The position numbers and the translations under genes were made by a program. A stretch of 64,000 nt of DNA from Eubacteriales bacterium (GTDB lineage Bacteria; Bacillota; Clostridia; Oscillospirales; CAG-272), in NCBI GenBank assembly GCA_045537235.1, contig JAZSPB010000076.1, positions 41 through 64,040 on the forward strand. The letters are read 5' to 3'. Each line of letters starts with the position of its first letter. Position 1 is the first letter of the stretch. This document shows, one piece after another, positions 7,924 to 58,130 of this stretch. The notes beneath the pieces are model-generated. The model was not told the origin of the DNA, ran no database searches, and saw nothing but the letters and a program-made list of their open reading frames with translations.

Positions 7924-7934
7924 ACCGCCGCCTG

Positions 7935-8117
7935 CGGGCGGGGAGGTCGCTTTTTTGAAAAAAAGCTCCGCAAAAAACTTTTGATCCGCGCCCTTTTTGT
8001 AGTTTGCGCGAACATAGCGAAACACCAAGGGGTGCAGTATGTTCGCTCAAACTTTGGCAAGGGCGCGGAACAAAAGTTTTTGCGGAGCTTTTTTCAAAAA
8101 GCGACCTCCCTCGCCCG
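7935..8117. repeat. Long palindromic intergenic repeat, copy A (fullest copy)
   Basis: GGGAGGTCGCTTTTTTGAAAAAAAGCTCCGCAAAAAACTTTTG ... CAAAAGTTTTTGCGGAGCTTTTTTCAAAAAGCGACCTCCC; nearly the whole ~180 bp can pair. Confidence 0.9.
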
Positions 8118-46471: not shown

Positions 46472-46520
46472 TTACTGAATTGAAAAATTGTCAATCAGTA
46501 AACATATGGAGGATATTTTT

Positions 46521-47999
46521 ATGGCGGAATACAGTATCTATCGGGACATCGCAACACGTACCGGCGGCGACATTTACGTTGGCGTTGTCGGTCCTGTCAG
46601 AAGCGGAAAATCTACATTTATAAAACGCTTCATGGAGGCGATGGTGCTTCCCAATATCAGCGACCCGCACGCCAAGGATCGGGCACGCGATGAGATGCCT
46701 CAAAGCGCGGCAGGCAAGACGGTAATGACCACCGAACCCAAATTCATTCCCGATGAGGCAGTGGAGATCAATCTTGACGGCGGCGTAAGTATGCGCGTCA
46801 AAATGGTGGATTGTGTGGGATATATCATTCCCGAGGCGCTGGGCGCCATTGAGAACGGTCAACCTCGTATGGTGCGCACACCGTGGCGAGAGGAGCCTAT
46901 GCCCTTTGTGGAGGCAGCCGAGATGGGAACCGAAAAGGTCATTAACGAGCATGCCACCATCGGAATGTTGGTCAGTACCGATGGCAGTATCGGAGATATT
47001 TCCCGTGAAAGCTATGTGGAAGCCGAGGAACGCATCGTAAATGAACTGAAAGCCATTGGTAAGCCGTTTGCCATGATCCTCAATTCTGCCAATCCCACAG
47101 CCGAAGCCTCGGTAAAGCTGGCATATGAGTTGGAAGCCAAATACTGTGTTCCCGTAGCTTTGGTGAGCTGTCTGGAGCTGGATGCCGAGGATATTCGGCA
47201 GATTCTTGAGTTGGTTCTCCATGAATTTCCCGTCAGCGAGATGCGTGTAAAATTTCCGACATGGGTTTCCGCTCTGGAGACTACCCACCCCATCCGTGCG
47301 TCACTTTCGGAGGCGGTAAGAAGATGCGTTGCCAATATTCGAAAGATCGGGGATGTAAACGGTGCATTTGACGAGCTGAAAAACAATGAAAATGTGGAAG
47401 AGGTTTCCATTGATCGCATAGACCTGGGAAACGGCTGTGCACAGATATCGACAAAGCTTAATGACGGACTGTTTTACGAAACAGTCAGCCAGCTTACGGG
47501 TATGGAGATTGCCGATGATAAAAATCTGATATCCACTCTCCGTGAATTGGCGGCGATGAAGTCCAAATACGATCGCGTGGCAGAGGCATTGGAAGATGCT
47601 ACCGATAAGGGCTACGGCATCGTCATGCCGGATATTGAGGAGCTGCATCTGGAGGAGCCTGAAATCGTCAAGCAGGCGGGAGGATATGGAGTTAAACTTC
47701 GTGCCGCAGCCCAGTCCATTCACATGATCCGCGCCAATATCGAAACAGAGATCAATCCCATCGTAGGAAGCGAGCAGCAGTCCGAGGAGTTGATCAAATA
47801 TATGCTTCGCGAATTTGAGGAAGACCCTCGCCGCATTTGGGAGTCCAATATGTTTGGTAAGAGTCTGTATGAACTGATGAACGAGGGGTTGCATACGAAG
47901 CTTTCCAACATTCCCGAGGAGTCCCGCACTCGACTTTCGGAGACCTTGGAACGTATAATCAACGAGGGAAGTGGCGGCCTGATTTGTATTATTCTTTGA
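46521..47999 (+). CDS. spoIVA: Stage IV sporulation protein A
   Basis: GVVGPVRSGKSTFIKRFM, MTTEPKFIP and C-terminal GGLICIIL. Confidence 0.98.
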   Translation: MAEYSIYRDIATRTGGDIYVGVVGPVRSGKSTFIKRFMEAMVLPNISDPHAKDRARDEMPQSAAGKTVMTTEPKFIPDEAVEINLDGGVSMRVKMVDCVGYIIPEALGAIENGQPRMVRTPWREEPMPFVEAAEMGTEKVINEHATIGMLVSTDGSIGDISRESYVEAEERIVNELKAIGKPFAMILNSANPTAEASVKLAYELEAKYCVPVALVSCLELDAEDIRQILELVLHEFPVSEMRVKFPTWVSALETTHPIRASLSEAVRRCVANIRKIGDVNGAFDELKNNENVEEVSIDRIDLGNGCAQISTKLNDGLFYETVSQLTGMEIADDKNLISTLRELAAMKSKYDRVAEALEDATDKGYGIVMPDIEELHLEEPEIVKQAGGYGVKLRAAAQSIHMIRANIETEINPIVGSEQQSEELIKYMLREFEEDPRRIWESNMFGKSLYELMNEGLHTKLSNIPEESRTRLSETLERIINEGSGGLICIIL

Positions 48000-48145
48000 C
48001 TTTTTCTTGTTTGGGGAGTCGTTTCGGCGGCTCCTTCTTTTGTAAAATAGGGGAGGACAAGTCTTACTGCCTTTTTCTTTCTTCCGAACATTCCAAGGTG
48101 TGTGGGGGAGACCAACAGCGGTTTTCTGCGATTCTTGAATAAATG

Positions 48146-48173
48146 AACCGATTTTTCATAAAAGCATATGCTA
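48146..48173 (+). promoter_or_regulatory. Possible mother-cell (sigmaK/sigmaE-type) promoter of the split GH18 gene
   Basis: -10 CATATGCTA (48165-48173) with AACC 15 bp upstream; alternative GAATAAA-N13-CATAAAAG just upstream. Confidence 0.45.
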
Positions 48174-48204
48174 TATTGAAATACCAACACAGAAAGGAAT
48201 CGTC

Positions 48205-49052
48205 ATGGTCATTTATACAGTGAAAAACGGAGATTCGCTATACAACATCGCAAGAGCTTATGGAACCACGCCCGATCGAGTCGTTGCAGATAACGATCTG
48301 AAGGATCCCTCAAAACTTGTCGTCGGTCAGACATTGGTTATCCAACAGCCGCTGGTATCCTACCGCGTACGGAGCGGAGACACGGTATATTCGATCTCCC
48401 AACAGTTTGGCGTCAGCCTGAATCAGCTTTATCGCAACAATCCCGTCCTTATGGGAGGAAATAATCTTGTTGTAGGGCAGTCGCTCAACATTGTTCTCCC
48501 TCAAGTACAAAACGACCGCGAGATCGAGGTCAACGGTTATGTATATCCTTCTGTCAGCCGCGAAACACTCATGCGCACCTTGCCGTATCTTACTTATATT
48601 ACGGTTTTTACTTATCGAATTGGAGAAGACGGAACTTTAGAGGACGTTGATGACGAGGAGATCATAGAAATGGCGCGGCAATACGGGGTAGCGCCCATTA
48701 TGCAGATTTCATCGGTTACCGAACGGGGAACCTTTTCCTCCGAAATTGCGGCGCGAATCTTGTCGGACGAAGCATTGCAAGACACGATCATTGAAAATGT
48801 TTTGGCGGTTTTGAGTGAAAAACGGTATGTGGGCGTTGATGTGGATTTTGAATATGTGGAAGGGCAATATGCGGATGCCTATGTGACCTTTCTCGAAAAA
48901 TTACACGCGCGATTGAGTTCCGAGGGATATCAACTGTTTGTCGCTCTTGCCCCAAAATACAATGCCGACCAAGAAGGGCTGCTATACGAAGGGCACGATT
49001 ACGCAGGTGCTGGTGCAGCCGCGGACGGTGTGACACTGATGACGTATGAATG
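48205..49052 (+). CDS. 5' half of an interrupted LysM2-GH18 spore hydrolase (YdhD/YaaH-SleL family)
   Basis: Two LysM repeats, EVNGYVYP, catalytic DVDFE, LLYEGHDY; family similarity stops at LMTYE and the frame runs ~19 unrelated codons to a stop at 49110. Confidence 0.92.
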
Positions 49053-49075
49053 TGTCATTTTTTCTTGCAAGATTC
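49039..49075 (+). other. attL recombination site
   Basis: ATGACG-TATGAATG-T-GTCATTTTTTCT; element-side arm 49054-49065 is the reverse complement of 56474-56485. Confidence 0.88.
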
Positions 49076-49118
49076 AAAAATATAATGCCGAATCTTATAA
49101 ATGCGTATGAGAATTCAG

Positions 49119-50618
49119 TTACAGACGGGGGAAAAGATCAATGGTTACGGCACGGGTTTGGCTGTCTTTGCGATAGGTGAGCTTGGCGAGAATTTCTTTG
49201 TACATATGGTGCTTTTCTTCAGCGGACAGCGTATCATAGGTGTCGAACAGATGTTGGATCTTGGGCTTGAAAACAGTATTCGGTGTGAGATTCTTTTCGC
49301 TCGCTTGAAGTTGCTTTTCCATCGCGTCTCTTTGGACACGATACTCTTCCAACCGAGTCTCAATGACAGCGCGGCGAGATATAAATGTGGGAATGTCATA
49401 GACACCTTGTTCAAGAAAGTCAAGTGCTTTTTGGAGTTGGAGTCGAAGTTTTTGGGTTTTGCTGTCGATATGGAAAAGCGCCTTCCGGACGAGAGTTGTT
49501 TCGGTCGCGCAGGGTGAATTTTGAAGATTGGCATAACAACGCATTCGGGAGAGCAGGGAATCCTTGACAGCCTTTTCCATGATGAAAAAGAGGGATGACA
49601 TCACATGACAATTTCGGTCAGAGCACATAATACGGCGCTCCTTTCCCGAGGAAGCACCTGTCATTTTGGCACCGCATTCCGCGCAATAGGCAATGCCGGA
49701 GAATACATTGTAGAATTGATGACCGCGAGCGGTCTGGTTGGTGCGGTTGACCGATCGAACATAACAGGCTTTTTCAAAAGTGTCATCATCGATGATGGCG
49801 GGGTGCCGACCTTCATAAACGGGGCAGTCGAAGTCATAATGACGGGATTTCACAACGGAGCCGTCTACCAGTTTTTTATTGGTTTTTTTATAGGAACAGC
49901 GGATCTTTCCTGTGTAGACAATATTGCGAAGAATAGTCGAAACAACGACCGGACTCCACGGAACACCGGTTCGCGAGGGAATGTGAAGCTCATTGAGGTG
50001 CTCCGCAAGACGGGTGAAGCCGAGACCTTGTTCAATATAGATATGAAACATATATTTGACCGTTTCCGCTTCTTCGGGATCGATTTCAAGGGTGTTTCCT
50101 TTATCGCCTTTGATTTTGGCGATCCGATATCCAAAAGGGGCTACACTTCCCATAAACCGTCCCTCGGCGGCGGAGCGTTTTCTTCCTCGCTCAAGGCGGC
50201 GATTGATGAGCATATATTCTTTGCGCGACATGAAGAGATTAAATTCAAAAAATTCTTCATCATATTCATTGGCGGGATCGTAGGTCTTGTAGGGGGTGAT
50301 GATTTTTGTGTTGGTGTATTTGAAGGTTTGCGTGATGATCCCCTGATCGATGGAGTTGCCGCGGGAGAGGCGGTCAGGATCCACACAAAGAACACCTTCG
50401 ACCTCGCCCATCTCAACGAGGCGAAGGAGCTTTTGCATTTCGGGACGTTCGATCAAAGATTCGCCGGAGACGACTTCTTCAAAAGAACGGGCGATGGTGA
50501 TACCTTGAGAGCTTGCGAAGGATTCCAGGAGAATACGGTGCCGTTTCAGTGTTTCTTCCACGGACAGTTCGTTATAGTCGCGGTCATAGCGGGATTTTCG
50601 AATGTAAGATATGTACAT
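49119..50618 (-). CDS. Large serine recombinase (SpoIVCA-like, 499 aa)
   Basis: YIRKSR catalytic motif, EEVVSGES, DPDRLSRG, APFGY recombinase domain, CAECG...CSDRNC zinc ribbon and coiled coil; AAGGAG RBS. Confidence 0.95.
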   Translation of the reverse strand: MYISYIRKSRYDRDYNELSVEETLKRHRILLESFASSQGITIARSFEEVVSGESLIERPEMQKLLRLVEMGEVEGVLCVDPDRLSRGNSIDQGIITQTFKYTNTKIITPYKTYDPANEYDEEFFEFNLFMSRKEYMLINRRLERGRKRSAAEGRFMGSVAPFGYRIAKIKGDKGNTLEIDPEEAETVKYMFHIYIEQGLGFTRLAEHLNELHIPSRTGVPWSPVVVSTILRNIVYTGKIRCSYKKTNKKLVDGSVVKSRHYDFDCPVYEGRHPAIIDDDTFEKACYVRSVNRTNQTARGHQFYNVFSGIAYCAECGAKMTGASSGKERRIMCSDRNCHVMSSLFFIMEKAVKDSLLSRMRCYANLQNSPCATETTLVRKALFHIDSKTQKLRLQLQKALDFLEQGVYDIPTFISRRAVIETRLEEYRVQRDAMEKQLQASEKNLTPNTVFKPKIQHLFDTYDTLSAEEKHHMYKEILAKLTYRKDSQTRAVTIDLFPRL

Positions 50619-50820: not shown

Positions 50821-51003
50821 ATGGCAGTGGTAACGATCTACCGTTATGAGGAGTTGAATGTGACGGTTTTGATTCACGATGATGAAATGCTGTCCGAAAA
50901 GGAACGTCGAGAGGTGGTGGAGCGGCTGTTTCGTTATGAGGAGGAGGCTTGTGCTCGGACGCATTGTCGAGATGGGCAGAAAGAGGGTGAAGGACGATCA
51001 TAG
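50821..51003 (+). CDS. Small 60-aa protein divergent from the recombinase; candidate recombination directionality factor
   Basis: Strong RBS AGAAAGGAG; CATAGGAT -10-like box at 50793-50800; MAVVTIYRY...VLIHDD resembles small clostridial prophage proteins. Confidence 0.65.
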   Translation: MAVVTIYRYEELNVTVLIHDDEMLSEKERREVVERLFRYEEEACARTHCRDGQKEGEGRS

Positions 51004-51140: not shown

Positions 51141-51168
51141 TTTAGCCCCGCTTTTGGCGGGGCTTTTT
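51141..51168. terminator. Terminator hairpin between convergent genes
   Basis: AGCCCCGC-TTTTG-GCGGGGCT followed by a T-tract. Confidence 0.75.
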
Positions 51169-51169
51169 A

Positions 51170-51877
51170 CTAAAAAAAGAATAGGGAACCTACATCATAA
51201 AGTCCCTCATCCGAGAGGGAGATGACATCAAACCCGTGAGCGGAACAAAACGATAAAATGTTTTTTCCGTCGGGATGTGTCAAAATGTCGCCACAGAAAA
51301 ACACAGTATGATTGCAAACACCCGAGGCACCGCCGATAAAGCCGTGGTCGAAGCCGTCAAGCGCAACGTGTCCTTCGGAGATGCGCAACACATTGATCGA
51401 AAGTGCACGGCACGTCTTTTCCATCGCGGGATCGGCGGTAATGACGGCTTTGTCCCCGAGCGTTACGGTGGAGCATTTTGCATATCCTTGGTTGGTGTTG
51501 AATATTGAGATCCCATGTTCCTCTGCATAAAGCTGTACTGCTTTAGCCATGTTGGTGCGCCGTCCTATGACATGGTTGCCAAGGATCGCGAGATTGAGGG
51601 AGACATCGCATGGATATTCAGCGCCTACCGCATCGTCGGTCAGCGTCAGCGAAAGGGAAGTCGCGTTAATTATTCGGTCGATTGTTTCTTTGGCCTCGGT
51701 ATAATATTTTTTGTGAACAAACATTCGGTCACCAAGAGGAAGGATCAGCATATCGGGATGGGATGCCACTCTTGGATCAAATGTCGAAAACGGGGGCAGA
51801 GAAATAATAGAAAAGCCTCGCGTTAAAAGCGTCGTGCGACATTTTTCCGAAATTCGGATATCGGTTACAGCAAGCAT
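51170..51877 (-). CDS. DUF6873-like (GME-fold) protein
   Basis: SHPDM, YPCDV, QGYAKCS, HGFIGGASG and LYDVGS motifs; GGAGG RBS. Confidence 0.75.
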   Translation of the reverse strand: MLAVTDIRISEKCRTTLLTRGFSIISLPPFSTFDPRVASHPDMLILPLGDRMFVHKKYYTEAKETIDRIINATSLSLTLTDDAVGAEYPCDVSLNLAILGNHVIGRRTNMAKAVQLYAEEHGISIFNTNQGYAKCSTVTLGDKAVITADPAMEKTCRALSINVLRISEGHVALDGFDHGFIGGASGVCNHTVFFCGDILTHPDGKNILSFCSAHGFDVISLSDEGLYDVGSLFFF

Positions 51878-51902
51878 AATACCTCCAAAAGTGTGCGCCT
51901 GT

Positions 51903-52086
51903 GGGCGAGGGAGGTCGCTTTTTTGAAAAAAAGCTCCGCAAAAAACTTTTGATCTACGCTCTTTTTTGGGGTTGCGCGAACATAGTGAGACACCGGTTGC
52001 TCAAACATCAGCAGGGGCGAGGAGCAAAAGTTTTTGTGCGCTTTTGAAGAAAGTGTGCTTTTTTCAAAAAGTGACCTATCCCGTCC
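51903..52086. repeat. Long palindromic intergenic repeat, copy E (inside the element)
   Basis: GGGAGGTCGCTTTTTTGAAAAAAAGCTCCGCAAAAAACTTTTGATC identical to the left arm of copy A; right arm degenerate. Confidence 0.88.
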
Positions 52087-52149
52087 ACAGGCGAACAAAA
52101 ATAAAGCCGGCAGACATGAACGACTGCCGGAAACTTTATGACCGCACAA

Positions 52150-52335
52150 TTAAGCGCGGGTGATCTTGCCCGAACGCAGGCAACGGGAACAAACGGCAAC
52201 GGTCGTAGGGGTACCGTCAACGATTGCCTTTACCTTACGAATGTTGGGCTTCCAACATCTGTTGGTCTTGCGGTGGGAGTGGGAAACGTTCTGTCCGAAG
52301 ACAACGCCCTTTCCACAAATGCTGCACTTTGCCAT
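52150..52335 (-). CDS. rpmB: 50S ribosomal protein L28 (zinc-binding form)
   Basis: MAKCSICGK...VSHSHRKTNRCWKPNI...CSRCLRSG; AGGAGG RBS. Confidence 0.97.
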   Translation of the reverse strand: MAKCSICGKGVVFGQNVSHSHRKTNRCWKPNIRKVKAIVDGTPTTVAVCSRCLRSGKITRA

Positions 52336-52400
52336 TTTGACACCTCCTGTATGCGGCTTCACGCATTGATGCGAGTTGAACTCATTACATAACGAGATAT

Positions 52401-52429
52401 ATTATACCATAACCGAGGGGAAAATGCAA
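52401..52429 (-). promoter_or_regulatory. sigmaA promoter of rpmB
   Basis: Minus strand TTGCAT-N17-TATAAT with extended -10 TG. Confidence 0.75.
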
Positions 52430-52450
52430 TAGTTTTTTGAAAATTTTTTC

Positions 52451-53761
52451 TCACAAAATGGATTTTTCTTTCTTTTTTTCAATGCAGGGGACGGATTTTT
52501 GACCGTAGACCGCTCCCGAGCCTTGTGCTGACTCAATGCGGAGCAGACGATTGTACTTGGCTACGCGCTCGCTTCTGCAAGGTGCTCCCGATTTGATATA
52601 GGGGGCATTTACCGCGACGGCGATATCCGCCAGTGTTGTGTCTTCCGTCTCGCCGGAGCGATGGGAGAGAATAAAGCCGTAATGGGCATCCTTCGCCGAG
52701 TGGATGACATTCAAGGTCTCGCTGAGTGTGCCGATCTGATTGGGTTTGATGAGAATAGCATTTCCCATGGCTTCTCGAATTCCCTTGGCAAGACGGGAAA
52801 CATTGGTCACAAACAGGTCATCTCCCACCAGCATGATTCGCTTTCCGAGACGCTCGGTCATCTTTTTCCACGCATCAAAATCTTCTTCGCCAAGACCGTC
52901 TTCGATGGATATGATGGGGTAACGGTCGACATATCGTTCGTAGGTGGCGATCAGTTCATCGGCGCTTTTTACTTCGTCTCGTTTGAACATATGATATTTT
53001 CCGTCCTCGCGATACCAACCGCTGGCTGCCACATCCAACGCGATCTTGACTTCGTCGGTGGTGTAACCGGATTTCTCAATGGCGCGACAGATCAGCTCAA
53101 TGGCTTCTTCGTCCGATTCCAAGTCAGGGGCATAGCCGCCTTCATCTCCCACAGTGGCGGTTCTTCTCATTCCTTTTAGGATATTTCCAAGTGTGTGATA
53201 GATCTCGCTTCCCATACGAAGACCTTCCGAAAAGCTTTCCGCGCCAACGGGCAAGATCATGAACTCCTGAATTTCCACATTGTTAGCCGCATGAGCGCCA
53301 CCGTTGAGAATGTTCATCATGGGAACGGGAATGCGGTATGCGTCAATGCCTCCGAGGTAGCGATAAAGGGGAATGCCGTAATGATTGGCAGCAGCGCGTG
53401 CATTTGCCATGGAAACCGCCAGAATGGCATTGGCACCTAAACGGGACTTATTTTCGGTGCCGTCCAGTTCACAAAGGATACGGTCAAGTTCATGCTGTTC
53501 ACAAGCATTGATGCCCGAAATGGCGGGAGAAATAACTTTACAGACGTTGTAAACCGCCTTCATAACACTTTTTCCGTGATAATAGGCGGCGTCTGCATCC
53601 CGTTTTTCGTGGGCTTCAAATTTGCCGGTCGAGGCGCCCGATGGAACGCTGGCCACTCCCACAGTTCCGTCATTTAGAAAAACCGTGGCCTCCACCGTGG
53701 GATTGCCTCGCGAGTCAAGGATCTCCCGCGCGCAACATTTAACAATTTGAGGTTTGCTCAT
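52451..53761 (-). CDS. eno: Enolase
   Basis: [48 protein letters not shown] and SHRSGET all present. Confidence 0.96.
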
Positions 53762-53924
53762 TTTATTTGCTTCCTTTCTTTTTCTCTACCGTTATTATTG
53801 GCAATTGAGGGGATTTTATTCTGCTTGCTGAAATATGAATGTTGGGCTTTTAAAGGGCAGAGCGAAAAGGACCTGGGGATATCCTCAACGGATTCTTTGC
53901 TTGCATTGAATTCGTCTTTGGGGG

Positions 53925-53953
53925 TTGACAATGATAATAAAGTGGGCTATACT
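53925..53953 (+). promoter_or_regulatory. Internal sigmaA promoter
   Basis: TTGACA-N17-TATACT embedded in the polyvalent reading frame. Confidence 0.65.
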
Positions 53954-54290
53954 GAATATGCCAAAAAGAAAAGGAAAAAAGTATATCGAGGCGGTGTAAT
54001 CATTCGTCGCGGCAAGGTGGTAAGTAACGGCAAGCGAACACAGACGGACTCCTTGATCGATAATGTTTTTCCTCCATATGACCCCTTTGTTAAGCACGGA
54101 AGTGAAGCGCATCGTTTGGCATTGGATTGGGCCTATAAGGCAGATACCAAGGCAGGGGACATGACTTTGATCTCGTATCATGACAGGTGGTATTTGGTTC
54201 AGAAATTCGATGATGCAGATTCAAAGTATTTAATTCGTCGCCGTGTTTTGAAGGCGGAATTTGAGAAAGTAAGCAAGGAGATTGAAGAAA

Positions 54291-54548
54291 ATGGAAAGAG
54301 CGGAGATATCAGCTCCATACAAAGAAGACTTACTCGGAATGATAAACGCAATAAATCGGGTTATTCCTTTAAGGAAAGAGAATCAAGTGTTGATCGTGAT
54401 GTTATTGAACACAGACGAGAAGGTCAATCAGTGGTTCGAATGGTTACGACCGAGAGTGACGGGCGAGAACGATCTGGACGCGACGGAGGCGGAGATCGTG
54501 AGGGCAGCGGTCAGGATAGACAATGGGAAGGATCCGAACGAGAGCTAA
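54291..54548 (+). CDS. Nested out-of-frame 85-aa protein inside the polyvalent ORF
   Basis: AAGGAG RBS at 54275-54280; amphipathic helical sequence while the host frame becomes R/G/E/S-rich low complexity. Confidence 0.6.
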   Translation: MERAEISAPYKEDLLGMINAINRVIPLRKENQVLIVMLLNTDEKVNQWFEWLRPRVTGENDLDATEAEIVRAAVRIDNGKDPNES

Positions 54549-55521
54549 CCCAAGAAGATCGTGAGGCATATGCGGCGTTTACAAGTGAACTTGGGGCGCA
54601 TATGTCGGAGGCTATTCTTGGCAATGAGGATTTTATTGACCGTGTGGTGCGCTCCGATGCTTCACTGACCGAGAAGGTGATCGGGAAGATCAGAAGCTTG
54701 AAGGAAGCCTTTGCTCGCATTGGAGATGCTGAGGCGCAGGCACAGCATAAGAGGTTGGTCGAGGCTGAAAAGCGGTATCTTAAGGCCATCAAGGCGGCGG
54801 GGTATCAGTATCGAGGCGGTAAGGTTTTGGTGTCGGAGGAGGAAAAAGAAAACACCGCGGAGGGCGGTGTCATTCAAGAGGCGGATCGTGTAAAATATTC
54901 TTTGAAAATCAAGCATACAGACGGCTCGATAGAAGAGTTGGCAGATGCAAGAAGTCTGACTGAGGAACAAGCTAAAAATTATCTCAAGCAAGCCAAGACC
55001 GGTGCTTTGCAAGGCCATACGTATATACCTGTTAGAAAAGACACACCACAAGTAATTATTGACACACTCAAACAAGTCAATGAGAATGTGGATGACTATT
55101 CTTTGGTGATGCAAGTAGGAAAGGCCAGACAGGCAATGTCTACAGAGAAATCAGGCAGTCGCAGACAAAAGCGAGGAAACAATGTCAGAAAACATGGATT
55201 GGGTCCCAAGGAGATAGTGACTATTATGAGTTGCCTTGACGATCCTACTGCGATAATATATCAAACCAATCGTGTAGACAAAAGTGGCAAAGATCTTCCC
55301 AATAATGTTGCAGTGGTTGTGGAGTATTCTGTAAGCGGTAACGAAAGCATTGCCGTGATAGAATTCGATAGTTCTATTCCGGCAGAAACAATCGGATTAG
55401 AGCAGGGGGATACAAGATATCATACGGTTGTTACGGTATTTGAGCCGGACACAATGCGAGATGATGTGGCGTTTGATTATGTGTCTGAATTGTTGTCTAA
55501 CCCCAACAACATTCTTTTGAC

Positions 55522-55594
55522 AATAGAAAGAGGACAACCCGCAAGAAGTGCCACCCGGGAGAAACATCCCAACACTTCAAGCAAACTGCCCTCT
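55522..55594 (-). ncRNA. Candidate antisense hairpin sRNA
   Basis: Minus-strand TTGACA-N16-TATAAT (55601-55628); 14-bp and 8-bp stems whose mismatches are all G-U pairs on the minus strand. Confidence 0.45.
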
Positions 55595-56080
55595 AATCCT
55601 ATTATATCCAAAAATTCAGAAATGTCAACCCCAAAACCGAAATTTTCTTTGAAGGAAAAAGGAGAGCGGGGCGAAAACAAAAAGTCCAATTCTTATACCA
55701 AAGAAGAAGCACGCGCCATGGTAGATAAGATCATGGAGGTGTTTGTGGGAGAGGGATATCATGGCAAACTTCCGGGCAAGAGAACCGAGGCGATTGATCG
55801 GGCACATATGATATTGAATAGCGCAGAGCCCGGAAAACGCGGAAGTGCGGCGTTGGATTTTGCGGATTATATTCTTCGTCATGCGGTGCTGGAGGATACG
55901 GTTGACGTGGATGAGGTTGCCCCCTATATGGAGAAGGTCGATCAGCTCAAGCCCTATTTGCGGCGATTGAATCTTGAGGAGCTTCGGGATGAAATTCGGC
56001 ATCATTATGATACTGACAGAAGTCTGCAATGGTGCTTGCCGGTGTTGAGGCGGTGAAAATGTATTATGAGTCGTTTAAGC

Positions 56081-56149
56081 AAAAAAACACGGGTCGTCAA
56101 GCCGCCGCGTCTGATTTAACAGAGGTCAACAAGCTCCATCGCCGTGTCG
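56081..56149 (-). ncRNA. Second candidate antisense hairpin sRNA
   Basis: Minus-strand TTGACA-N17-TACATT (56155-56183); ends pair (ACACGG/CCGTGT) and are followed by a U-tract. Confidence 0.4.
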
Positions 56150-56463
56150 TTTATAATGTATCAGAATTTCTTTCATTTGTCAAGAGCAAACTAAGGTACT
56201 TGTCATACGATATGCTTTTATTGGAACAAAAAAGTAAAAGAGAGACATTTTTCGAAACAATTCAATATATCGAATAGAAAAACGGCAAAAAATATATTGT
56301 AAATAATTGTATTCAAAAAGAGAATATTAACATGAAATGAGAAGCAATGGAGATGAGCGAAAAGCCGAGAAGAAACTTAAATTCTTTTGGGAAATTCGTT
56401 TGGGACCGTCAGAGGTGTAGAAGAATCGAGAGGGTATTCTCATAATTCCCGGGCAGTTGTTCC

Positions 56464-56494
56464 CGACCTTTTGAGAAAAAATGACCTATGAATG
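56464..56494 (+). other. attR recombination site
   Basis: AGAAAAAATGAC-C-TATGAATG then GGGATAT, resuming the WGY codons. Confidence 0.88.
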
Positions 56495-56945
56495 GGGATA
56501 TTCAAGAGGTGAACCGCAAGCGGTATCCCCGGTGGATAAAGTGCGTCGCGTAGTCGAGTACGGCGTGACGGAGATCCCTCCCGAAAAAATATTTTTGGGA
56601 ATGCCAAACTACGGTTATGATTGGCGGTTGCCCTTCGTAATGGGTGAAACGGTGGCGCGGTCACTTTCCAATGTGGAGGCGGTAGATCTTGCCAAGACCA
56701 ATCGCGCGGCAATTTTGTTTGACGAAGTAGCGCAGTCGCCGTATTTTAACTACTTTATAAGAGAGAACGGACGAAATACGGAGCACATCGTTTGGTTTGA
56801 AGATGCAAAAAGCGTAGCGGCAATGCTGGGGCTGGTCGAGGAGTTCGGTTTGCGCGGTTTCACCGTGTGGAATTTGATGCGTTACTTTCCTCAGTTGTGG
56901 CTTGTTCTCAATAACACCTTCCGCATCCGAAAAACACTTTCTTGA
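56487..56945 (+). CDS. 3' half of the interrupted LysM2-GH18 spore hydrolase
   Basis: YEWGYSRGEPQAVSP, EIPPEKIFLGMPNYGYDWRLP, AQSPYFNY, HIVWFEDAKS and FPQLWLVL continue the family sequence. Confidence 0.92.
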   Translation, partial: YEWGYSRGEPQAVSPVDKVRRVVEYGVTEIPPEKIFLGMPNYGYDWRLPFVMGETVARSLSNVEAVDLAKTNRAAILFDEVAQSPYFNYFIRENGRNTEHIVWFEDAKSVAAMLGLVEEFGLRGFTVWNLMRYFPQLWLVLNNTFRIRKTLS

Positions 56946-57004
56946 TCTGTAAATTTGGGAATTCCTGCAAAAGCGGTAAAAAAGGATATTCAATGCCTAT
57001 AATA

Positions 57005-57042
57005 AAAGCCGAAGGTCTTTTTTGGATATGACCTTCGGCAAA
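57005..57042. terminator. Terminator between convergent genes
   Basis: GCCGAAGGTC ... GACCTTCGGC. Confidence 0.7.
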
Positions 57043-57050
57043 ATTTTTAA

Positions 57051-58130
57051 TTATTTATCTGCTCTTTTTTTCAAAATGGTGTTCATATATACCAGCCAGT
57101 CGCGTCGGCTGAAATAATGGGAGCCGTCACGGAGATGATAACAAACATTTCCCTCATGAAAATCAGCCCCGGGGACGGGAAGCCTGTCGGGGGCGACAAA
57201 TCCCGAAAGTCCCAAATTTTCCCACGCGCGGGAGGCTGCTACGCAGGAAAGATACTCGGAGTCGGGATCGGCCCAGGTATCCTCCTCCGCCGAGCCGATC
57301 AGAACAACGCGAGGGGCAATGGTGGCAAGGAGCATATGTTGGTCGAATGTCAATGCTTTGTGATCTACATATTTTTTATAATTTTCACAGAACCAGTAGG
57401 GGAATGTCTTGGTAATGTTGGAGATCTGCTCGCCCACCTTGCCGCGCGTAATGGCAGTGCCGCTGCATCCGGAATCATTGGAGATGACATAGCGGAAGCG
57501 TTCGTCCAACATACCGGTTACCAGTGCGGTCTTTCCCAATCGAGAGTGACCGGCTACCGCACCGTGCTCATGATCCAATTGATCCAATGTCATTGCATAG
57601 TCCATCACGCGCATATTAGCCCATGCCCACATGAGAATCTTGCCGGTATCGTTTCCGTTTTTCCGAATGCCGTCGGGGAACAGAATGCCTGCAAGACCGT
57701 TGGTCATATCGTTATTGTCGGAGGTTATATTTTGATAGCAAAGTTCAAAAACGGCAAAACCGTTGTTGATAATTTCTTCGACGGGAAGATATTTGCTTGG
57801 TACTAAATATTCAAAGTCGTTGTGAACTATGAACGGATATTTACCTTTTTTATTAGGAATGACCGCCGTGAAGGGGAAGGAAAAATCTTTTCCGCAGACC
57901 TCGACATGAGCAACGATCTCATATTTGGTGGCCGCACCTGCGCAGAATCTACGCTGTGCTCCATTGGGTGGAATGACTTCGAATTCCACTTTGGTCGGCT
58001 CGGGAACGGGCAGTCCGTATTCCTCATTGAAAAGCGTTGTTTTATATTTTTCACGGATGGTACTCCATGTGTTGAAATCAAAAGCATCAAGCTCACAGAT
58101 ACCTCTTTCTTTCAGCATTTTTTTTAACAT
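57051..58130 (-). CDS. CE15-like (glucuronoyl esterase family) alpha/beta hydrolase
   Basis: WAW...RVMDY, GHSRLGK, SGCSG, DQHMLLATIAPR and DTWADP. Confidence 0.85.
   Translation of the reverse strand: MLKKMLKERGICELDAFDFNTWSTIREKYKTTLFNEEYGLPVPEPTKVEFEVIPPNGAQRRFCAGAATKYEIVAHVEVCGKDFSFPFTAVIPNKKGKYPFIVHNDFEYLVPSKYLPVEEIINNGFAVFELCYQNITSDNNDMTNGLAGILFPDGIRKNGNDTGKILMWAWANMRVMDYAMTLDQLDHEHGAVAGHSRLGKTALVTGMLDERFRYVISNDSGCSGTAITRGKVGEQISNITKTFPYWFCENYKKYVDHKALTFDQHMLLATIAPRVVLIGSAEEDTWADPDSEYLSCVAASRAWENLGLSGFVAPDRLPVPGADFHEGNVCYHLRDGSHYFSRRDWLVYMNTILKKRADK

Follow-up and report, generated by a model that had tools for sequence, protein, structure and literature searches.

The 64,000-nucleotide stretch of DNA analysed here (henceforth the window) lies on contig JAZSPB010000076.1 of the Eubacteriales bacterium assembly GCA_045537235.1, a metagenome-assembled genome of the Oscillospirales lineage CAG-272 (2.82 Mb in 187 contigs, 84.25% complete, with 3% contamination), and the sequencing runs that contain this DNA are animal gut metagenomes. 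In the window a gene for a YaaH/SleL-type cortex-lytic enzyme of the architecture LysM-LysM-GH18 is split by a 7.4 kb recombinase-bounded insert, which reaches from an attachment (att) site core at 49045-49052 (attL) to another at 56487-56494 (attR). Besides a large serine recombinase gene, the insert holds a block of the host's own genes that includes the only enolase gene and the only gene for ribosomal protein L28 detected in the genome. We consider it probable on balance that this insert is a small, non-prophage sporulation intervening element that would be excised during development, that has captured core genes from its immediate surroundings, and that would be locked in the germ line by them.

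The 5' half of the split gene (48205-49052, plus strand) encodes two LysM domains (Pfam LysM, E 2.5e-26) and the first part of the GH18 domain (E 3.8e-09), including the conserved DVDFE stretch. It aligns with the solved YaaH (4s3k) over residues 6-287 (E 2.7e-44), is 78% identical to residues 1-282 of the orthologue in the nearest congener (G007) and, past the core, continues out of frame to a stop at 49110. The 3' half (56481-56945, plus strand) matches positions 215-314 of the Pfam GH18 profile and is 79% identical to its counterpart in the same congener. The halves share the four residues MTYE, abut where MTYE is followed by WGYS, and jointly span the full unsplit orthologues of G007 and of the outgroup G001 with nothing lost or gained; the unsplit G007 protein in turn matches the solved SleL (4s3j, E 3.9e-81) and YaaH (4s3k, E 3.6e-80) over its full length. 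Judged by their sequences, the halves show no sign of decay, in that they appear as conserved as the neighboring genes and have no excess divergence from G001, to which they are 67% and 70% identical as compared with 64% for the unsplit gene of G007. At each end of the insert lies the same 8-bp core, TATGAATG, which can be read directly from the sequence; the two copies (attL, 49045-49052, plus strand; attR, 56487-56494, plus strand) are in direct orientation and in equal codon phase. Each is accompanied, 1 nt away on the element side, by an 11-nt arm (49054-49064 beside attL and 56475-56485 beside attR, plus strand), and the two arms are perfect reverse complements of each other. Identical direct cores combined with inverted arms are the anatomy of the attL and attR sites of a serine integrase, and, given that the codon phase of the cores agrees, their recombination would restore the reading frame of GH18 and yield a circle of 7.4 kb. 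A CATA-type -10 element upstream of the gene is conserved in six genomes as inspected by eye, and we claim no sigma-E or sigma-K promoter from it. The yaaH gene of Bacillus subtilis is SigE-dependent. As for the sporulation regulators of the present genome, it has a spo0A gene above the model cut-off, and its sigE-like and sigK-like genes are the best matches to the respective models.

The recombinase gene (49119-50618, minus strand) ends 67 bp from the attL core and encodes 499 residues from a start at MYISYIRKS, with the reading frame open back to 50732. Its product contains the Pfam domains Resolvase, Recombinase and Zn_ribbon_recom, the catalytic motifs YIRKSR and DRLSRG, a zinc ribbon formed by C312, C315, C332 and C337, and a coiled-coil region; with the full length, all domains and the catalytic motifs in place, it is to all appearance an intact enzyme. 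It matches the integrase family PHROG 95 (E 1.8e-85), and the solved protein most similar to it is the SPbeta integrase SprA/YokA, whose residues 16-506 align with 3-478 of the recombinase at E 4e-42; its match to the XisF model (E 2e-24) falls well short of the cut-off of that model. Divergent from the recombinase gene is a small open reading frame (ORF), orf60 (50821-51003, plus strand), which is preceded by a GAAAGGAG ribosome-binding site and encodes an acidic protein of 60 residues. In complex models orf60 and the recombinase reached an ipSAE of 0.73, as against 0.00 for the best of three controls, a mark that the pair shares with 51 of 78 solved complexes and with two of 108 mismatched pairs; at least 64% of the contacts agree between runs, with a partner pLDDT of at least 48. 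The modelled interface places a strand of orf60 against the last strand of the recombinase (residues 488-497) and against the helix 346-361 that follows the zinc ribbon, that is, at the junction of DBD2 and the coiled coil. Known recombination directionality factors (RDFs), as described in the accessible text of PMC12286644, bind this very junction, often by strand addition. On the strength of this model, orf60 is a plausible candidate for the RDF of the system.

The first-pass annotation had placed rpmB, eno, a DUF6873-like gene and a copy of a chromosomal palindromic repeat between attL and attR, and all four indeed lie there. First in the block is the DUF6873 gene (51170-51877, minus strand; Pfam E 2.9e-60), whose orthologues occupy the same position in 11 congeners at 46-52% identity. 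It is followed by rpmB (52150-52335, minus strand; PF00830, E 2.2e-22), which encodes an L28 of 61 residues counted from an ATG at 52335; this ATG is preceded by AGGAGG and is likely the true start, the ORF tool having chosen a GTG at 52362. The product carries the CxxC...CxxC pattern, scores 75 bits against the L28 equivalog TIGR00009 (cut-off 48.3) and is 81-98% identical to the L28 proteins of the congeners. The near-consensus sigmaA promoter that had been assigned to rpmB stands in part: the extended -10, TGgTATAAT (52409-52401), is perfect and the spacing is 17 nt, but the -35, TTGCAT, agrees with the consensus at only three of six positions, and the promoter of rpmB as a whole (52429-52401) was not listed by the consensus promoter scan. 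The last gene, eno (52451-53761, minus strand), encodes a full enolase of 436 residues, as had been claimed, with 609 bits against the equivalog TIGR01060 (cut-off 300) over model positions 1-419 of 425. The palindromic repeat, dispersed and resembling a miniature inverted-repeat transposable element (MITE), stands between the DUF6873 gene and rpmB (51892-52097, with arms at 51892-51930 and 52059-52097 and a fold z-score of -5.5); it has 72 matches in its own genome, in accordance with its description as chromosomal, and is missing from the corresponding spacer of G007, which is 68 bp long. The repeat unit measures about 200 nt (window 51880-52110), with a further copy near 7929-8116, and its depth of about 1000 in this bin of the Logan contigs, in three gut runs, indicates that it is widespread in these communities.

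The block is the host chromosome's own neighboring DNA, as judged from synteny and phylogeny, rather than phage cargo or an import from elsewhere, and here too the view of the first-pass annotation, which had proposed to settle the matter by copy number, phylogeny and synteny, is borne out. Of the 12 loci that were fetched around eno, 10 belong to congeners and two to other genera; in all 10 congener loci, and in G005 as well, DUF6873, rpmB and eno are contiguous and in the same orientation. A syntenic eno gene is found in every one of the 13 congeners, with products 71-84% identical to the window enolase. In five of them (G007, G001, G008, G004 and G012) the order uvrC-rsmD-coaD-spoIVA-[DUF6873 rpmB eno] is preserved, with extra genes between spoIVA and the block in G004, G012 and G007. 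In seven congeners (G007, G001, G002, G008, G009, G010 and G013) an unsplit GH18 gene lies adjacent to eno and divergent from it, and in an eighth, G005, GH18 and eno are at matching contig ends; G005 also keeps, as does the window, the far flank GH18-orf359-peptidase-peptidase (M16). Since both outer flanks are ancestral, the change is strictly local, and amounts to a conversion of the order spoIVA-[block]-GH18 into spoIVA-GH18_N-[recombinase, orf60]-[block]-[orf769, orf82]-GH18_C, where GH18_N and GH18_C denote the 5' and 3' halves. In a tree built from 16 of the 26 enolase matches together with the window sequence (excluded were the incomplete genes from G005, G010 and G013 as well as the matches of G024, G028, G022 and G029), the window enolase is the sister of that of G007 (support 99/98) within the clade of the genus, with end branches of 0.079 for the window and 0.11 for G007. 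The position of the block between spoIVA and GH18 in the congeners, taken together with this tree, argues that it is native chromosome that has moved by about 1 kb into the insert. As to copy number, protein and family-model searches of its own genome recovered one enolase and one L28 gene, both of them inside the insert.

The remainder of the insert is foreign. The largest ORF, orf769 (53747-56056, plus strand), probably begins, in reality, at a more internal codon that follows a TTGACA-17-TATACT promoter at 53925-53953, and matches no family in Pfam, NCBIfam or PHROG. Pieces of it match ORFs of 1950-3515 residues in five genomes, and of 450 and 572 residues in two more, among 150 genomes of the family; 25 database relatives cover 23-63% of its length, and several of these carry PF18760, PF18798 or PF18812, Pfam domains known from polyvalent proteins that phages and conjugative elements encode. 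Hence orf769 looks like a fragment of a relative of the giant polyvalent proteins of mobile elements. It is followed by orf82 (56029-56277, plus strand), likewise with no match in Pfam, NCBIfam or PHROG. In a PHROG search with five queries for the four foreign genes (orf60 in two versions), the integrase was the sole match, and no phage structural, packaging, lysis or replication gene was recovered; this speaks against a prophage or defective prophage, and, with no other mobile-element gene present, the insert is non-prophage-like. No ORF of the insert matches a toxin-antitoxin family in Pfam or NCBIfam. The plus-strand site at 53925-53953 agrees with the promoter consensus at 11 of 12 positions, and orf769 harbors a perfect TTGACA-16-TATAAT promoter-like site in antisense (55601-55628, minus strand).

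We propose that the recombinase, with orf60 as its directionality factor, would act in the mother cell to recombine the two att sites, thereby rejoining the GH18 gene in frame and releasing a 7.4 kb circle. After the original insertion, or together with it, a strictly local rearrangement would have moved DUF6873-rpmB-eno from its place between spoIVA and GH18 to one flanked by the recombinase module on one side and the polyvalent-protein remnant on the other, probably by the action of the element's own recombinase on pseudo-sites, so that the only detectable enolase and L28 genes came to be bounded by attL and attR. A terminal mother cell would come to no harm by excision, since it would retain the circle, on which the genes still have promoters of their own. 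If a dividing cell were to excise the insert, however, the non-replicating circle would be lost and with it glycolysis and a ribosomal protein; as the loss would cost such a cell its core genes, precise curing would be counter-selected and the insert would be fixed in the germ line. This lock follows logically from the anatomy and does not amount to evidence of selection; the element may be domesticated, as the first-pass annotation had it, or the arrangement may have arisen as a neutral, irreversible accident. In its strongest form, the proposal would mean that at each maturation of a spore by a mother cell the only eno and L28 genes depart from the chromosome as part of a circle, under a toxin-free lock that arose through recombinase pseudo-sites; we regard this version as conceivable but doubtful. 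Should it hold, the insert would be the first case of an intervening element composed partly of a mobile remnant and partly of indispensable chromosome.

The route of capture has left traces at the joints. In four congeners the ancestral spacer between eno and GH18 measures 121-126 bp, and in the window it has been cleanly cut: about 65 bp remain with eno (53762-53826, with homology to G007 up to 53804 by blastn and, by eye in five congeners, up to about 53826), and GH18_N has kept the promoter-proximal part. A third exact copy of the att core (53834-53841, plus strand) lies at the joint of host spacer and foreign DNA, no more than 10 bp from the cut on the eno side, and has the same orientation as those of attL and attR. 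The core occurs five times in the window, three of them at insert joints, as compared with 2.84 expected occurrences. An exact core at this breakpoint suggests that the recombinase helped to move the host block, and pseudo-sites would be the likely means as far as the sequence goes. A second trace is a diverged copy (48121-48170, plus strand) of the first 50 bp inside attL (49059-49109), which is situated just upstream of the -10 region of GH18, at the new spoIVA/GH18 joint. The two segments align with a local score of 33, which was reached by none of 500 mononucleotide and by one of 5000 dinucleotide shuffles, and they are reciprocal best non-self matches in a scan of the whole window. GH18_N is thus flanked by a diverged 50-bp direct repeat, which the proposed route leaves unexplained. 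Formally, the most economical path would comprise two events: a circle consisting of the block, the spacer, GH18_N, attL and the recombinase module would have been excised between two pseudo-sites, and the same circle would then have been reinserted in another register. No intermediate, in the form of an insert without the host block, was found among the species genomes, where the fetched flanks of the five recombinase loci lack GH18, eno and rpmB, or among the metagenome contigs, where there are 11 recombinase loci at 21-29% identity; further, the genome with the best relative of orf769 (G138) has no recombinase or GH18 gene within 20 kb of it. Two candidates for further sites were rejected: the orf60/DUF6873 joint, which by eye had seemed attP-like, did not reach significance (185 and 120 of 500 shuffles), and a 9-mer common to 53873-53888 and the host arm of attR (12 of 500 shuffles) fails once nine comparisons are allowed for. 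The eno/GH18 spacer of G007 (L028 10543-11490) is 950 bp instead of about 125 bp long and contains, besides several short AATGTCAATAG-like motifs, a GC-rich stretch of 28 nt in two copies; it has the look of a further small repeat element that was inserted there.

The following observations weigh against the proposal of a developmentally excised and locked element. The GH18 gene was not found in five of the 13 congeners (G003, G004, G006, G011 and G012), three of which are 92-93% complete; because these five form a single clade in the enolase tree (100/100), the gene was evidently lost once and is dispensable in the genus, so that an inactivated copy would be tolerated. Excision in the mother cell is itself something that we infer from the anatomy of the insert. 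The recombinase has no close relative (the best of the five loci in the species genomes is 38% identical), and none of the 13 congeners has a match to it at E<=1e-30. For orf60, searches recovered no family in Pfam, NCBIfam or PHROG, no solved relative and no other relatives; its own fold is uncertain in the model, with a pLDDT of 48-53, and, since the SprA-SprB complex has been solved, the good score of the model may partly reflect likeness to that complex. At the two other rearrangement joints comparisons with shuffled controls detected no significant att-like site, and a Smith-Waterman scan of the window with 52-nt reconstructions of attP and attB yielded nothing above background besides attL and attR themselves. 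L28, according to the accessible text of a preprint (10.1101/2021.01.31.429008), can be disrupted in at least one minimal bacterium; as L28 is not essential in every bacterium, enolase would be the stronger part of the lock. To these points are to be added the incompleteness of the genome, the second enolase of one congener and the provenance of the bridging contigs, which are taken up with the alternatives on which they bear.

The most serious alternative is that the insert is a dead scar, which no longer excises and has inactivated the GH18 gene, with the position of eno and rpmB between former att sites being of no consequence. The tolerated loss of GH18 in one clade of the genus fits this well, as do the messy history of the locus, with its three extra joints, and the remnant state of the foreign part, a polyvalent-protein fragment without other mobile-element genes. 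A scar would not by itself account for two open halves that are conserved like their neighbors with no extra divergence from the outgroup, a full-length recombinase with its catalytic motifs, identical cores with perfect 11-nt arms, or the modelled placement of orf60 at the RDF site of the recombinase. These intact parts weaken the alternative, but a very recent insertion would look alike; we judge a dead scar unlikely, and lean towards working developmental excision as the rather likelier state of the locus. A second alternative denies the lock: a canonical second eno or rpmB, or both, might be encoded in the unassembled 16% of the genome, in which case loss of the circle would be harmless. 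The genome is, as stated, 84.25% complete and in 187 contigs, which leaves room for such a copy, and G004, alone among the 13 congeners, does have a second enolase locus (the two matches in G013 being pieces of one gene). This second enolase (L025, G004:C1:6061-7293) is 58% identical, clusters in the tree with genomes from other families in the order, and is likely a horizontal acquisition. Against the alternative, the copies in the insert correspond, as syntenic orthologues, to the single-copy genes of the 13 congeners; 12 of these lack a second enolase locus, all 13 have exactly one L28 above the Pfam cut-off, and no other copy of either gene was recovered from the 84% complete genome by protein or family-model searches. 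Hence, we regard a harmless loss of the circle as improbable.

Least tenable, and in our estimate very improbable, is an assembly chimera, in which strains were misjoined into the order GH18_N-recombinase-block-orf769-GH18_C, a danger pointed out in the first-pass annotation and inherent in a 187-contig metagenome-assembled genome with 3% contamination, since no gene of the locus has a second copy in the genome that could have served as a repeat for misjoining, base composition is even across the whole locus with the insert included, and three of the five novel joints are bridged by separately built contigs. Specifically, Logan contigs of run X1 bridge spoIVA/GH18_N (47286-48366), eno/orf769 (52407-54026) and attR (56359-57078), and a contig of run X2, from a different study, bridges attR (56310-56602), with X2 also containing pieces of the recombinase, DUF6873, eno and orf769. 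On the other side, X1 may be the source sample of the window, in which case the second study bridges attR only, and among the matches listed, from four runs, no contig spans attL or the orf60/DUF6873 joint. Nor does any contig among these matches join 49050 directly to 56490, but Logan contigs drop rare joined forms and are hence uninformative on excision. One X1 contig follows spoIVA as far as its stop codon at 47997 and then continues into unrelated sequence; it may derive from a co-resident relative with another gene order downstream.

In structure the insert belongs to the skin/SPbeta/gin class of sporulation intervening elements: the features common to skin, SPbeta, vfbin, vrin, gin and yin, namely a split sporulation gene, an adjacent recombinase and direct, identical, in-frame cores, are all found here, and by analogy with that class the excision would be timed by cell type. 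SPbeta is a 134 kb active prophage, whereas the window insert is 7.4 kb long, has the integrase as its sole phage gene and occupies a different target gene. The resemblance to SPbeta is closest in the recombination apparatus: the accessible text of PMC4191935 and PMC5499854 describes SprA, which rebuilds spsM during sporulation of B. subtilis, as a large serine recombinase encoded at one end of the insert that splits this sporulation gene, with a short overlapping core at both joints and a small adjacent directionality factor, SprB, the place of which would be taken here by the candidate orf60. Core host genes inside SPbeta are not described in that text (PMC4191935, PMC5499854). SprA is also the solved protein closest to the window recombinase, as noted above; orf60, in contrast, lacks detectable sequence likeness to the solved SprB fusion. 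The gin element in gerE of Bacillus cereus is, according to the accessible text of PMC5595907, similarly a non-prophage intervening element with a serine recombinase, GirC, a small, unrelated, adjacent factor, GirX, and a 9-bp overlap at its joints, but it measures 28.6 kb with 31 genes and three recombinases, and its cargo is exogenous and of lower GC content, with a restriction-modification system and a recJ homologue (PMC5595907). One third of the window insert, by contrast, is the host's own housekeeping DNA, and its GC content is even. With skin, in the sigK genes of B. subtilis and Clostridioides difficile, the insert would share excision in the mother cell by an element-encoded serine recombinase; in C. 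difficile the RDF confers cell-type specificity (both in the accessible text of PMC5025042), and the window has a candidate for such a factor. The target of skin is a sigma factor gene, so that excision gates a regulatory step, whereas in the window the gene of a late structural enzyme is hit, one that some members of the genus have lost, and the sigK gene of the present genome is unsplit, with an open frame of 234 residues. The heterocyst fdxN element of cyanobacteria is excised in a terminal cell by the large serine recombinase XisF; the heterocyst elements differ from the present insert in phylum and in target genes. With toxin-antitoxin modules and with essential genes on chromids the insert would have in common that a cell losing the DNA would not survive. 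It differs from the former in the absence of a toxin-family match, the penalty being the loss of single-copy core genes, and from plasmid and island retention in that the DNA belongs to the chromosome, from which it would depart only in a cell past its last division.

In the open full-text literature we found no intervening element in yaaH or sleL and none that carries essential genes, the supplements of surveys, which could list a yaaH-type target, lying outside this search. The insert is set apart by its target, its small size, its near absence of foreign genes and, above all, its content of single-copy core genes of the host. Intervening elements are usually described as prophage remnants with foreign and dispensable cargo, and their persistence is an open question; the window insert offers a simple and testable reason for persistence, in that its precise loss would remove single-copy core genes. 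It further provides this class with a new target gene, that of a YaaH/SleL-type cortex-lytic enzyme, with a compact pair of recombinase and candidate RDF with defined att sites, and with a natural example of chromosomal genes that seem to have been rearranged by a serine recombinase in the surroundings of its own site.

From 43 kb onwards the genes of the locus are, in plus-strand order, uvrC, rsmD, coaD, spoIVA (46488-47999, plus strand; TIGR02836, 695 bits), the 5' half of GH18, the recombinase gene (minus strand), orf60, DUF6873, rpmB and eno (all minus strand), orf769, orf82, the 3' half of GH18, an ORF of 359 residues and two M16-type peptidase genes. The DUF6873 gene is followed by a two-way terminator hairpin (51144-51164). 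The spacer between spoIVA and DUF6873 is a hot spot for insertions in the genus: it holds an ORF of 239 residues in G007 (L028 7331-8050), an ORF of 558 residues in G004 (L030 6531-8207) and about 4.2 kb of DNA in G012 (L031 4119-8319), and in G001 and G008 it consists of one two-way terminator only.

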